64,000 bases of DNA from Escherichia coli (GTDB lineage: Bacteria; Pseudomonadota; Gammaproteobacteria; Enterobacterales; Enterobacteriaceae). Positions 1 to 9,000 of this stretch are shown in pieces. Location: assembly GCF_030384885.1 (NCBI RefSeq), contig NZ_CP128614.1. The stretch is one strand, 5' to 3'. Positions within the stretch are counted from its first letter, which is position 1. The number at the start of each line of letters is the position of its first letter. A program made the position numbers.

Positions 1-3000
1 CATTTTGGTACGGGTTACAGACCAAACCTGCATCCCGGATTCCAGCTGGCTGATTTTCATATTATATCCTTAAGCCAACACGAACTGCGCCACAAAAATT
101 AATGTGGCGCAATTTACCATAAACAATAAACATCAGATACCCGTGAAGAGATTTCCCTTTATTTTAAAATTCTTCTGGAGAAAAAATGATATTTCCAGAA
201 GAAGTCAGCGAAATTCAGAAACGGCCATCACAATGGTGCTGCGCTGACGCTGGCGTTCTGCCTTGCGCTGCCTGCGGCGATAGATCTATTTTGCGCTGAC
301 GTAAGGGCAGTCCTCACGGGTATACCAGCAGCAGCCGCAAGGTTCGGGCCGGGGTTTTCCGGCAAGTCCAAATGGTTTCATCAAGTCACCTTTTTAATAT
401 TTTTAATGGCAAGATACTTCCCTAACACATTGTTTTATCGCATATAACGCTGTTGCATAAACAGATACAGATAACCCTCAGGAGAAAACATGCAAAGGTT
501 ATCAGTGATAACCGCATCCAGATACCGAGTGTCAGTCTGTAAACGTTTTATCACCAGAAAATGTGCTGCCGCAGCCTTAATGCCAGAACTACCGTTTACA
601 ACATTATGTATACCCGCTTCGAATAACGAACGAGCATGAATTACCTTTTCCCGGGCCGCTTCGATCTCCGCATTAATAACGCATTGCCGCGCCTGGATGA
701 CTGCCTCTCCGGTTAAATCGCGGAAATTCATTAGAGATGTGATCATGATTAACTCTCCAGATTATGTGGAATCATTATAACAACTGGCATCCCGCCACAA
801 ATAACCTGAGAAAAATTCTTTGAAATATTCCTATATATAAGGAATTACAGTCGGAAAAGAAACGATGAAATAGCGCCGACCGCTTAAAATCGATAAATTA
901 AAATGGACGGCACTGGAATGAAAAACTGAAAGTAGTAAGACCGTAATTATCCTTCACGGATGTAAGCTTTATAAGAGGAGTACTGGCAAAGCTTTGCCAA
1001 GTACTTCGGCGGTTGTGTCTACGATTTTACGGATGTCATCGATCTGCGAAGGCTTATTCAACACCACCGTAAAAAGCTCTCCTTCGTTATCAGCCTGCTC
1101 GCAGTTTCCGTATCGGCTCCCGTCGTACAGCTGCACAATACGTGACATAGAAGACTTTGTTTGTTTCATGGCTTTGCACCTGCTTTTAGGCAGTTTGGTT
1201 ACTGGTTATCAGAAGCTGGTTTCATGCGCTTCCGGCTGGGACACGAACTGGTATTTGACGCCGCCAGGCACACCTACTGCTTCGGCAATAGAGTCGCAAA
1301 GCCGCGATAAATCATTTAGTGTCATCGGATATTCAATATCTACAGAATATAAAGCACCTGCATTTTCAGCATCTTCGATGTTTTTATACTGGGCACTAAA
1401 TATAGCAATGGTCTGAATTTCGTGGTTATGCATGAACCGGTCCTTATTAAATTATAAAAGCCACCCGAGAGTGGCCTGAGTTGAAACTTAAATCTGTGAA
1501 GTATTTTTGAGAGATTTTTTGCGATCCAGATGCCGGGCAACAATGGTTCCGATAACAAGTAGCATGATGACCGCACTGAAGAAGGTGCTGTCAGGGACGC
1601 CCTGGAAAAAATCACTGAAACTGTAAACAATAAAAATCAATGCGCAAAAATAGAAAACGATACGAACATAAGGGGTAAAAAACATTTTCATCGGTTGCCT
1701 TCCATTCAGGGAGAATTCTCAGTAATTACATCACACCTGAAGAGAAACTATTTTCGTATAAATGAGCATTTTCGACATATCAGAGGGGGGGTTTACTCAT
1801 AAATGAGGTAGTAAGGGTCACACTTGAGGTGAAAGTTACTTTCCTGGCTGCGAACGAACTATCTCAAATGTTAGAGGTGTGCGTTCGCCTTGAGAGCCTC
1901 ATGCCCTGAGGAGCTCAACTTGAGCCGATAGTATAAACCTGGCTCCAGATGGCTTGCTGGCTGGCATAACTCCACGAGGCCGAGCCGGAACAGGACCGGA
2001 GAGCTCCTGCACGTCACATCATCAGGATTCCCCATAAACGTACGCCGTTCTCTGGCCCGTCTGAAATTGCCAGAGATATCATAGACCGTGCCGGATGCCA
2101 TCCGTCGTAACACGTAAATCTGTGCCATTGTAAGCTTCTGGGCGGAACTGCTTAAACCTGACATACCTTCCCCTCCTTATATAAAACAATCCGCCAGCAG
2201 CTCGACTGGCGGACAATGTTTGACTGGCAACAGCAAGGACATACTATTTAGTGACAAGTTTGATCTTGGTTTCACTCATTCGAAGTCGAAACTCCTGAAA
2301 ACCCTGCTCTACCGCTAACTCCAGCCACTCAACGGGAATGGTATAGCTACAATCAGACCCACCCAAAGCGGCATCACAAGCGTAATCCCAGTCCTCATCC
2401 AGTTTTGGATTCATCCCCTGGGCGTAAGCCACAGTATCGCGGGATGCGGGAGAGCCCTCAAGCTCAGCATTAGTGATCAGGTATACACCATGACTGTGCG
2501 CGAGAAGCACTTTTGGCACCAGATGTGTGCTGGCAATTTTTGAGGATGAGGGAAAGAAAACCCTACCAGCTTTACGCGCCTCTTCTTCAGTCTGTCCCTC
2601 AGCGTTAAGGAGGGCTCCCCCCGGATAGCATGCCGGGTCATAGATCTGATCTGCGGTGACCGAAAACGTTTTTGCGGTGCGAATTTCTTCGATCAGTTTA
2701 TTAATATCCGCCATTTCAAATACGAGAGTGGTCACAGGCTTACTCTCCCTCTTCAGTGGACAACATCAGATACTTTGTTGCCAGCAGAAGCTCTCCCACA
2801 TCCTTGAGGGACAATTCAGCTTTGCCTTCTACGGCAAGCTGCAAGCGCTGTCGAATTGCATGAACAGAATCTGAAGATAAAGATGCCATTTTGCGCAAAA
2901 CGGCATTAGCCTTTTCTACAGCAGGATACAGAATTTCTGAGTTGGTATTATCTTCGTCATTATCAAAGATAATTTCAGAATCCATATTGATGTTATCTTC

Positions 3001-6000: not shown

Positions 6001-9000
6001 AATGCGTAAAAACATCTCTTTGGTCATTCAGATACCCCCTCAACTTTGCGAATTTTGATCAGATGAGGGCGATTCAGTTTACAAAGTTGTTCTGTCGCTT
6101 CATCAATCGAATTGAACCGATGAGCCTCTTCGATATTTAAAGTCCAGTATTTCGCTTTCCCTTCTCCCAGATCGGACTCAAAATAATTTCGCTTTACATC
6201 CATTTTTTTAGGCCTGCCATTTATCTTGACGACATTATGTCTGTCATCAAAAAGAAATTCGTCCCCCTCAAAAGTGATTAATACAAATGGCCCCTCAGGC
6301 TTGGAAGTCCGGGGACTTCCCATTTTCAAAGTCATACTTCAGCCTCTCGATAGAACTCATGAAACCTCAAATTAAAATGGACTCACACCACACTGATTCA
6401 GTATTCCTCCTGAACCCCATTAGGCTCTGTTGTGATTTCATATTTAATACCGCCAGGTGCTCCCACAGCGTCCGCGACCGACTCACACAGCAGCGAGAGA
6501 TCGTTGAGGGTCATTGGGTGTTCAATGTCCAGCGTGAAGAGTTTCCCGGCTTGCTTGGCGGCTGTCTTGTCAGCATGTTCAGCATTAAAAAGGTATACGG
6601 TGTGTTTTTCCTGAGCGGGGGTATTTTGATTTTGCATTGATGATCCTTTTGTTTAGTTCCCCGATTCCGGGGGTGAGTGAATTAATTTAAATTTATATTT
6701 GTCTGGTTTAATTAGAACGTTTCCAGGCTATGCGTAAACAGGTAATGCAAAGGCTGTATCAACAGGATTAAAGTTACTTTTCTGGATGCAGCAACGCTTG
6801 GACATGATGTCCACATTACATCACGATCAAAGCTAAGTTTTTTTTGTATAACCCCTTCATTTTCGTGTGTTTCGCGTTTCAGACGCTTATACGACCTGCC
6901 TGACCATCCTCATCAGAAGGCGGTTTAACAGTCCTTTCGCTGTCGGGCGATTGCTATCGACATAGTAAAAACCTGTTTTGGTCGTACCGTGAGCACTGCT
7001 CAGCACCCTCAGTTCCCAGATAACGTCACGGATAACGCCGCCATTTTCTGGCTTAAGGCATTCAGATAAATGGCGCATGAAACGAGCTCTTACGGCACGG
7101 TAATAGCGGAACTCCTCTGGCTGGTTAGTATTTTCTTTCACCCGGAGTCGCTGGTTACACAGAGTTAGAACTGCATCCATCATTCCCGCCTTCAGCTTCG
7201 CCTGGATCGCACCTTGTTGCTGTTCCCTCTCACCTTCGAGTAACGTTAAGATTCTTTCTCCGAGTGCCGTCTTGTTGTGTACGTGCAACTGTACACAGGC
7301 AGCTACGCATGCCCAGAATCTGAACTTTTTTATCTGTCCACGCAATTTCCGGGCTACAACCTGACGGTATGCAGTATCGCTGAGTATTTTAAAACGCCGA
7401 CTGGCAACCAGCTCTGGAAGCGACACTCTTTCGCCTATCCCCAGGCGGGAAAAGGTTTGTCCCCGTTGTGCGAGACGATGATAGACAGCGCCCTTCCCTT
7501 TTGAAATTCGGACCGCGCCATAACGAAGAAGATACTGAGCAGCAGTCGTTGGAGTAAACTCACCGTCAGCGATGCTCTGGCGTAACCCGTCGTATTCATG
7601 CCAGATAATCCAGGACGCCGTATCTTCTTCAACAGTCAGCTCATCCTCTTCCTCGAATGCCACGACGACAGAACTGCTCTCTCCGGTCTTTAGGCTACGT
7701 GAAGCCCTGGGGTCAGCCTGCCCGTCAAAATAGGTCATCAGCGGCAACGTATCAGTCAGTCCATCATAAGCTGTACCGAACCGGCCTCCGGGCAGTTTCA
7801 TCCAGAGTGGAGCTGGCATTGGTGTACGGGCCACAGGCAGCATGTCAGGCTCATCCTCAAGAAGGTCCAGATCGGCCTCTTCCCAGACTCTGCGATAGAT
7901 CTCAATTGCCCGAAACGGGCGAGGGTTGAAACAGTGCAACGACCAGAGGAAATCAACGTGGATCACGTTTGCTTCATGTACAAGCCGAAATTGTGGCTCA
8001 GCCATACGACGGTTATAAGCCGTATCGTCCACCTCGCCGGAAAGTAGCTTTCTGCGATGCTTTGCCGCACGTCTGGCTTCAACATAATCAAGGCTGCAAC
8101 AGACATGAAAAAGACGTTCAGTCAGGGACGAAGAAAAGATATTGGGTTGAAGACGCACATACCCGCCTTCGAACACTTTACGACCGATATAATCCCGCAG
8201 GCTCCAGTCGTACTGGATCTTAGAAAGAAATCGCTGAAGACGACTTAGGCCTGCCTGATAACCATATTTCTCAGGGTCAGTGCGAAGGAGCGTTTCCATT
8301 GAATGGTCAACCCCTACGGCTGTGCAAAGCGAGCACCCATATCTAGCCCCACAAGCTGAGGTTCGCGTGGGTTTCTCCGGCGACCAGATACACTCTCCGG
8401 TGGCGTCTTTATAAAGCGTTGCCAGGCTGAAGTTATCCGGCATAAAGCTTGGTAAAGGGAAGCGGGATTCGGAACCACAGGCCATTAGAAAAGACCAGAT
8501 GTCCTGAGTGCGCCACTCCTTTACTGGATAGAGTTCACCACCGTGCTCAGTCAGGGTTACTTTCCTCGCCTGCCCTCCCATTTTGAGGATATTTCCGGCC
8601 CTTCGGGCACTTTCATCATCCCTGGAGCCCAGCATCAGGCATACCCTGCTTCGTACGGATGCCGGGGCGTTTTTTAGATAACGAGCTTTGGCCTTGCGCA
8701 GGGGGGCGATTTTGTAGTCACAAACTACTACCACACTGTTACAGTGTAGAAATTCTGGAAGGCGGTGCCAGTGTTGGTTTAGGATAATGTTAACAATTTT
8801 TCCAGAGTTTTCAGAGAAAAGAGATTTTGAGTGACAAACCACTGATGTTTTCCAGAATCACTTTCTCTTAGAAGATCGATAAAGTCTGTCTATGGGGAGG
8901 ATCGTCTCCCAGGGTGAAGTCAGTCCACTTCACCGAGTTGCTTCCCCATCGGTGGGTTCTTCAAAAGGGCAACATGGCCGCCCTCCAGAGGTGAACGTAC

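Follow-up and report, generated by a model that had tools for sequence, protein, structure and literature searches.

Three small-protein genes of the IncH plasmid backbone and the conserved palindrome at the heads of their operons

Among described systems, the closest to the locus treated here is the kil-kor regulon of the IncP-1 plasmids RK2 and RP4, in which kleA-F, klaABC and klcA are placed under KorA, KorB and KorC. KorB belongs to the ParB family and acts as a global regulator through palindromic sites, some close to promoters and others distant from them; kleA and kleC, which occupy two similar operons, are related to each other, and telA-like kla genes form part of the regulon. Twelve sites have been counted for IncP KorB and seven for KorA, and the kle genes are induced 20-50-fold on entry into a new host, with a 10-220-fold range across the operons that KorA/KorB control, kle, kla and klc (PMC7314908). 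Here we analyse a 64,000-nucleotide stretch of Escherichia coli DNA (contig NZ_CP128614.1, assembly GCF_030384885.1; hereafter the window), and in it three paralogous proteins of about 8 kDa, p74, p79 and p66, a small membrane protein, TM67, encoded next to p74, and the palindrome AAAGTWACTTT at the heads of their operons. We tentatively favour, while granting that it may well prove wrong, the reading that they form a transfer-coupled module of the IncH backbone, composed of small, mostly acidic putative binding proteins and resembling the kle genes of kil-kor. IncHI1 and IncHI2 plasmids are important vehicles of multidrug, mcr-1/mcr-9 and typhoid resistance, and to our knowledge no function is known for about half of the genes in their backbones.

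The second point of reference is the IncHI1 plasmid R27 (GenBank AF250878), for which Gibert et al. (2020; PMC7366339) found 139 of the 181 expressed genes to be derepressed in an htdA mutant at 25 °C, with no effect at 37 °C. The tra genes rose 8-28-fold at the lower temperature, and the reported action of HtdA on TrhR/TrhY is at the level of the proteins. This regulon was defined by expression alone, and the text of the paper names no motif, palindrome, consensus or binding site.

The window had previously been described, in an earlier note made from its sequence, as plasmid DNA carrying two paralogous proteins of 74 and 79 residues with a conserved block in common. Both statements hold: the window is an IncHI2 backbone equivalent to positions 226-274 kb of R478 (NC_005211), the paralogue locus corresponding to 227-236 kb, and p74 and p79 align without gaps over 64 residues at 50% identity and 78% positives (BLASTP, E 2e-26), the block reading PMTLNDLS.LC.S.A.AVG.PGG.KY. 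The count of two has to be revised, as a third paralogue, p66, had been missed. It was the sole further member returned by six-frame phmmer and family hidden Markov model (HMM) scans of the whole window (E 2e-6 against p74 and 6e-3 against p79), the next-best open reading frame (ORF) having E 3 with the family HMM and no better than 0.6 when single proteins were the queries. All three proteins score E 1e-33 to 1e-42 against the family HMM, of which they are also the training sequences, and P0047 and P0050 from other plasmids are intermediate homologues linking p66 to p74 and p79. AlphaFold2 models of p79 (mean confidence, pLDDT, 77) and p66 (pLDDT 72) share the same order of elements, namely strand, helix, strand, long helix and strand; the final strand of p66 is only two residues long and is absent from the element list of its model.

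The three genes are arranged with one paralogue (p79) alone at the head of its operon and the other two (p74 and p66) in tandem, each preceded by a Shine-Dalgarno sequence. R27 carries all three (72793-73017, 86024-86248 and 86283-86489), and between the R27 and window orthologues synonymous divergence (pS) is saturated at 0.54-0.86, nonsynonymous divergence (pN) being 0.11-0.34. Judged by their sequences, p74, p79 and p66 are real genes under purifying selection. Synonymous sites are likewise saturated between p74 and p79 (pS 0.85), so that the duplication must be old and predate the split of IncHI1 and IncHI2; recent duplication or gene conversion of the pair was rejected on the same value.

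Had the conserved block been a common housekeeping domain, as the earlier note allowed, the reference collections should have recognised it; none did. There were no matches for p74, p79, p66 or TM67 in Pfam (to E 1), in NCBIfam and PHROGs (E 0.1) or in PADLOC (E 0.01), and the paralogue family has neither a sequence nor a fold match in the PDB. A word-indexed search of 5.8 billion proteins gave 32 clusters at 90% identity, none bearing a functional name. An exhaustive profile search of 1.84 billion representatives gave 26 matches, of which those examined were IncH-type small proteins or truncated forms, the uninspected remainder including three long multi-stretch matches. A tblastn search placed the family in 1,299 of 72,556 plasmids, in most cases at two sites each. 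Every one of these is a large Enterobacterales plasmid, and the predicted share of conjugative plasmids is 93%. The database distribution thus shows the paralogues as an anciently duplicated family of small proteins that occurs only in the backbone of conjugative IncH-type plasmids, and they are an uncharacterised IncH-specific family rather than a new kind of system. The region itself is common: 1,029 plasmid records match positions 900-7000 of the window, 794 with at least 80% query coverage and 586 with a best match of at least 99% identity. They come from Escherichia, Salmonella, Enterobacter and Klebsiella; those examined carry the types IncHI2A, MOBH and MPF_F.

Expression data are available for the IncHI1 orthologues, those of R27. 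In Table S4 of PMC7366339, R0071-R0075 are raised 8.8, 14.9, 7.2, 8.4 and 4.9-fold in the htdA mutant at 25 °C, and R0091-R0093 5.3, 12.3 and 14.4-fold; R0088-R0090 stand at 3.8, 1.8 and 2.8-fold and the flanking IS genes at 1.1-1.7. R0073 would be the p79-type gene, R0091 the gene for the membrane protein, R0092 the p74-type and R0093 the p66-type gene, although the exact register is of no consequence for the conclusion, every gene in both R27 blocks being induced. The orthologous operons, at 5-15-fold, share the derepression seen for the tra genes and therefore belong to the transfer-coupled HtdA/TrhR/TrhY regulon.

Co-induction with transfer genes is also what would be expected if the acidic p74 and p79 were anti-defence or establishment effectors, acting as DNA mimics or as blockers of the recipient's defences, with paralogues diversified by target. 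The net charges of -8 (p74) and -7 (p79) over 74-79 residues are in keeping with such a role, as are an ancient duplication with diverged copies and surroundings with many orphan methyltransferases as well as a DndC-like and an HNH protein. The family, however, shows neither homology nor a fold match to any known anti-defence protein, and its position lends no help. In R478 the mobI/oriT intergenic region lies at about 190.4-191.2 kb and the paralogue locus 32-41 kb away, past the relaxase and coupling-protein genes; on that side and at that distance it is not within the first kilobases transferred from oriT, and a leading-region argument is therefore impossible. Leading-region status and Frpo-type single-strand promoters were rejected, given this distance and the absence of long hairpins. 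We regard an anti-defence role as unlikely. A different idea is that the paralogues are small regulators or anti-repressors tuning the HtdA/TrhR/TrhY circuit or the palindrome-binding protein. They sit in palindrome-headed operons of the same regulon, and small protein modulators are plausible in a circuit where HtdA acts on TrhR/TrhY at the protein level (PMC7366339); yet these are acidic proteins without a DNA-binding motif, nothing ties them specifically to regulators, and we consider the idea highly improbable.

The reading as a transfer-coupled module draws further on gene order. A TM67 homologue of 67-68 residues immediately precedes the p74-type gene in all five lineages compared, namely IncHI2 (window and R478), R27 and the more distant L003, L007 and L020. 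TM67 identity across these lineages is only 27-39%; the homologues keep two hydrophobic helices, a basic tail and the motif (F/L/S)SD(F/I/M)F. The earlier account of the p74 operon was right that a palindrome heads it and left out that the operon opens with this conserved membrane protein. The p66-type gene is absent in L007 and separated by a DUF6012 gene in L020. The L020 order is PAPS gene, 154-residue gene, TM68, family member, DUF6012 and p66-type gene; genes spread over two operons in IncHI2 thus form one cluster in L020. In PLSDB nothing close to L003 or L007 was found, and the distant mode gave only 8-10% coverage at 67-70% identity.

That the order TM67, p74-type, p66-type is kept across five lineages (with the L007 and L020 departures just given) despite such low TM67 identity would also fit a kil/antidote or membrane-complex module. 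TM67 would then be the effector (toxic, or associated with the pilus or with exclusion), the soluble paralogues would control or neutralise it by attaching to its basic cytoplasmic tail, and p79 would be an extra, unlinked copy. The tail of TM67 is basic and the C-terminal tails of p74-type proteins are acidic, and in R27 the p79-type gene, too, follows a gene for a membrane protein. Against this, IncHI2 p79 has no membrane partner, a putative effector gene in first place is unusual for the type II order, and neither TM67, p74 nor p66 matches known toxin or antitoxin families in Pfam, NCBIfam or PADLOC. We hold this explanation, like the anti-defence one, to be improbable.

Gene order raises one more candidate role. 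In all lineages examined the family cluster lies just downstream of a DndC-like PAPS-reductase-family gene of about 800 codons, and in the more distant lineages L003-L006, L007 and L020-L022 this gene is directly upstream, the position that it has relative to p79 in the window. The 794-residue R478 protein matches DndC models at E 6.5e-38, and L003, L007 and L020 have no palindrome between the DndC-like gene and the family, so the paralogues could be accessory subunits of this enzyme in plasmid DNA modification. In the window, however, a 20.4-kb insertion interrupts the DndC-like gene while p79 remains 100% identical to its R478 counterpart; p74 and p66 lie 5 kb away in a separate operon, and the sole cysteine of the conserved block is not kept across the family. 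A role as such subunits is accordingly quite unlikely, well below the anti-defence and kil/antidote explanations. The same lack of cysteine conservation led to the rejection of a sulfur-carrier role.

The earlier note placed p74 and p79 each in an operon headed by a palindromic site, one of these operons also carrying an HNH endonuclease. The palindrome copies are where they were said to be, and the HNH protein is encoded in the p79 operon (Pfam HNH, E 1.5e-4, 22.2 bits against a cut-off of 21.4). What does not stand is any implication that the site is specific to these operons, for it is one of 42-47 copies spread over the backbone. R478 has 47 exact copies of AAAGTWACTTT against a shuffle mean of 0.24, and R27 has 42 against 0.2; it is by far the most frequent palindrome of 10-13 nucleotides in either plasmid; the runners-up, at 4-7 copies, are its own one-mismatch variants. 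The window holds 12 exact copies of 11 nucleotides (starting at 1832, 4039, 6770, 14729, 28813, 32183, 36395, 45384, 47608, 54311, 54376 and 61203) and 33 matches if at most one mismatch is tolerated and both strands are counted, where 2.5 would be expected. On the coding strand the copies at the three operon heads read GCAGCCAGG-AAAGTAACTTT (1832), TCATCCGGG-AAAGTTACTTT (4039) and GCATCCAGA-AAAGTAACTTT (6770), with the flank CCRGR in common. The extended consensus is G-A-AAAGTWACTTT-T-C, and the 15-bp form is GAAAAGTWACTTTTC.

Roughly half of the sites are intergenic, compared with the 15-16% of DNA that is non-coding (p 9e-9 and 2e-6), and the intergenic ones usually lie 80-300 bp upstream of a start codon. 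None occurs in the tet, mer, sil and pco accessory segments. For 32 R478 sites the flanks could be aligned with R27, at 64-81% identity, and 26 of these sites have an R27 copy at the orthologous position; in the same alignments only 5.7% of 11-nucleotide windows are perfectly conserved (p 3e-27). The position-conserved sites include intragenic ones in traD (two), trhI, trhH, rsp and others. L003, L007 and L020 carry the same palindrome at 3-6 copies per 10-12 kb. A scan of genome contigs for the 15-mer gave, among the matches listed, isolated single copies in unrelated genomes, about 2,000 chance matches being estimated in 298 Gb. On this comparative evidence the palindrome is a cis-element under strong purifying selection, and such a backbone-wide conserved element is to us the most interesting by-product of the analysis. 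In the literature open to searching we found no description of it, of IncHI binding motifs or of the relevant R27 gene numbers.

Several observations bear on how the palindrome might be read. R27 expression rises across the copies at 72184 and 85552, and the copy at 11569 lies within the trhP internal promoter region described in PMC7366339. The palindrome may be the element that responds to HtdA/TrhR/TrhY. Pfam recognised no DNA-binding domain in TrhR, TrhY, or HtdA and its neighbours, and there is thus no sequence-based tie between these proteins and the palindrome. Besides the partition ParB, IncHI plasmids encode three paralogous ParB-HTH (KorB-like) proteins. For the third of these, encoded outside the window, both R478 and R27 show a pair of palindromes ahead of the start of the gene, at distances of about 90-105 bp and 220 bp; the promoter region is otherwise only partly conserved, and the arrangement fits autoregulation. 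That this third protein is the regulator binding the palindrome is possible, if rather doubtful.

A more far-reaching proposal is that GAAAAGTWACTTTTC is the operator of an undescribed KorB-like global silencing system, in which a ParB-HTH protein would load onto some 45 sites and gate the backbone together with HtdA/TrhR/TrhY. TM67, p74, p66 and p79 would then be cargo of the 'kil' type, that is, transfer-coupled small effectors with an anti-defence or a membrane-protein-neutralising action. Taken as a whole we judge this proposal unlikely.

We return to the reading that we prefer, a transfer-coupled module of small putative binding proteins. The paralogues show no catalytic or DNA-binding signature; the small size and lack of features of p74, p79 and p66 speak against enzymes, and the acidity of p74 and p79 speaks against DNA binding. 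With their β-α-β-α-β order they would most likely serve as stoichiometric binding partners of TM67, of a host factor or of both. The palindrome would be the operator of a plasmid-encoded global DNA-binding protein, for which a KorB-like ParB-HTH protein is the best candidate. Expression would come in a burst while the transfer regulon is on, in a derepressed donor and in a new transconjugant before repression, much as for the kle/kla 'kil' genes of the IncP kil-kor regulon.

A number of points weigh against this reading. The assignment of R27 gene numbers is inferred from gene order between the IS10, IS1 and corA anchors and not from sequence, and with 139 of 181 expressed genes in the htdA regulon, membership discriminates poorly. 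With a charge of -1.5, p66 is not acidic, and p79 in IncHI2 lacks a TM67-type membrane neighbour. The locus is 32-41 kb from oriT/mobI, on the relaxase side. In operon A the palindrome follows the promoter-like box and in operon C it precedes it, differing positions on which a fixed-geometry operator was rejected; in L003, L007 and L020 there is none between the PAPS gene and the module; and half of all copies are intragenic, which is compatible also with a structural or segregation role.

The coordinates of the features are collected in Table 1. All genes of the locus are on the minus strand, and they fall into operon A, headed by p79, a middle operon B with a 106-residue gene, DUF957 and DUF3085, and operon C with TM67, p74 and p66.

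Table 1. Features of the paralogue locus and related genes (window coordinates unless stated otherwise; aa, amino acids)
Feature	Position	Strand	Remarks
p79, 79-aa acidic small protein	6398..6637	-	family member, first gene of operon A; isoelectric point 4.6, charge -7
p74, 74-aa acidic small protein	1209..1433	-	family member, second gene of operon C; isoelectric point 4.4, charge -8
p66, 66-aa divergent third paralogue	969..1169	-	in tandem after p74, 39 bp downstream
TM67, 67 aa	1488..1691	-	first gene of operon C; two hydrophobic helices, FSDFF motif, basic C-terminal tail
Palindrome AAAGTAACTTT	6770..6780	.	heads operon A; 133 bp upstream of p79 start; about 35 bp downstream of box
Palindrome	4039..4049	.	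heads operon B (106-aa gene, DUF957, DUF3085)
Palindrome	1832..1842	.	heads operon C; 141 bp upstream of TM67; about 75-90 bp upstream of box
Promoter-like box, operon A	6815..6851	-	GTTATAC, A-tract, extended -10 TGaTGTAAT; conserved in R27
Promoter-like box, operon C	1725..1761	-	TTATACGAAAA...GTGATGTAAT; conserved in R27
103-aa protein, phrog_30913 (function unknown)	6024..6335	-	operon A
62-aa protein	5839..6027	-	operon A; start overlaps stop of 103-aa gene
HNH endonuclease-motif protein	5245..5811	-	operon A; later RefSeq start gives 177 aa
DUF6012 protein	4522..5133	-	last gene of operon A; then terminator-like hairpin 4447-4462
DndC-like PAPS-reductase-family C-terminal fragment, aa 171-794	6887..8842	-	residues 171-794 at 8761-6890
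DndC-like gene N-terminal fragment, residues 1-184	29635-29084	-	separated by 20.4-kb insertion
ParB-HTH paralogues in window	58095-59258 and 62469-63524	-	KorB-like
Third ParB-HTH gene, outside window (R478 protein WP_001272971)	R478 216013-217197; R27 92336-93541		65% identity

The heads of operons A and C share a box of 37 nucleotides consisting of GTTAnAC, an A-tract and an extended -10-like TGnTGTAAT. It is kept at both orthologous heads of R27, where the palindrome of operon C lies about 170 bp upstream of the box, and occurs nowhere else in R478 or R27; the duplication therefore took in the promoter. The 5' leader of p79 contains a GC-rich hairpin, CCCCG-GAAT-CGGGG, at about 6659-6674 (minus strand), with the palindrome on one side of it and the ribosome-binding site on the other. 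Between TM67 and p74, a terminator-like hairpin is followed by TTTTATAAT (1458-1477, minus strand); this element holds a perfect TATAAT 22 nucleotides before the p74 start codon, and p74 and p66 may therefore have a promoter of their own in addition. In the R27 array the signals of the p74 and p66 orthologues exceed that of the membrane-protein gene. An ORF of 97 codons at 1871-2164 (minus strand) matches phrog_26489 (E 3e-17) and has a homologous frame in R27; the PLSDB gene tables list it for neither R478 nor R27. Upstream of the DUF957 gene, a perfect inverted repeat with arms of 15 nucleotides (3106-3120 and 3148-3162; TAACCTGAGCAGAAA / TTTCTGCTCAGGTTA) and 27 nucleotides between them is intergenic and could form a large hairpin or an operator. 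An Rfam scan of the whole window found no RNA family.

Two structural differences from R478 were observed. A 3.3-kb segment (R478 230688-234006) coding for two TelA-like 'toxic anion resistance' proteins and one hypothetical protein is missing from the window, the junction being at 4521, directly after the DUF6012 stop codon. The 20.4-kb insertion that splits the DndC-like gene spans 8720-29080 and carries genes of the cyclic oligonucleotide-based antiphage signalling system (CBASS) type (cGAS/DncV-like, E2/UBC and phospholipase), as well as a DEAD-box helicase and a diguanylate cyclase. The palindrome copies at 14729 and 28813 are inside it, and pMY490-mcr-9 is the only other plasmid record with the complete insertion.

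The small-protein module is a compact, conserved and transfer-coupled unit; if an establishment or anti-defence function were true, the proteins would be a new family of that kind, limited to a single plasmid group of clinical importance. Like Ocr, ArdA, Ugi and AcrIIA4, they are small, borne on a mobile element and expressed around transfer, and p74 and p79 share the strongly negative charge, but they differ from these proteins in having no fold or sequence match, in the non-acidic p66 and in their linkage to a membrane protein. The resemblance to IncP-1 kil-kor lies in several operons of small proteins, plasmid-wide palindromes at the operon heads, which in IncH are putative operators, and a large conjugative plasmid as carrier, to which the TelA-like genes of R478, found within the same region as the paralogue locus, may be added. 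The two nevertheless appear unrelated in sequence, to judge from the partly inspected matches of the profile search; the IncH palindrome is distinct in sequence, has 42-47 copies against 7-12 and is half intragenic, and control in R27 runs through HtdA/TrhR/TrhY and depends on temperature. There is also a likeness to the R27 HtdA-TrhR/TrhY regulon, the orthologues being derepressed 5-15-fold at 25 °C and not at 37 °C, as most tra genes are. We found no cis-element reported for that circuit, and the conserved palindrome offers a testable candidate for one, with the ParB-HTH proteins as its candidate binders.

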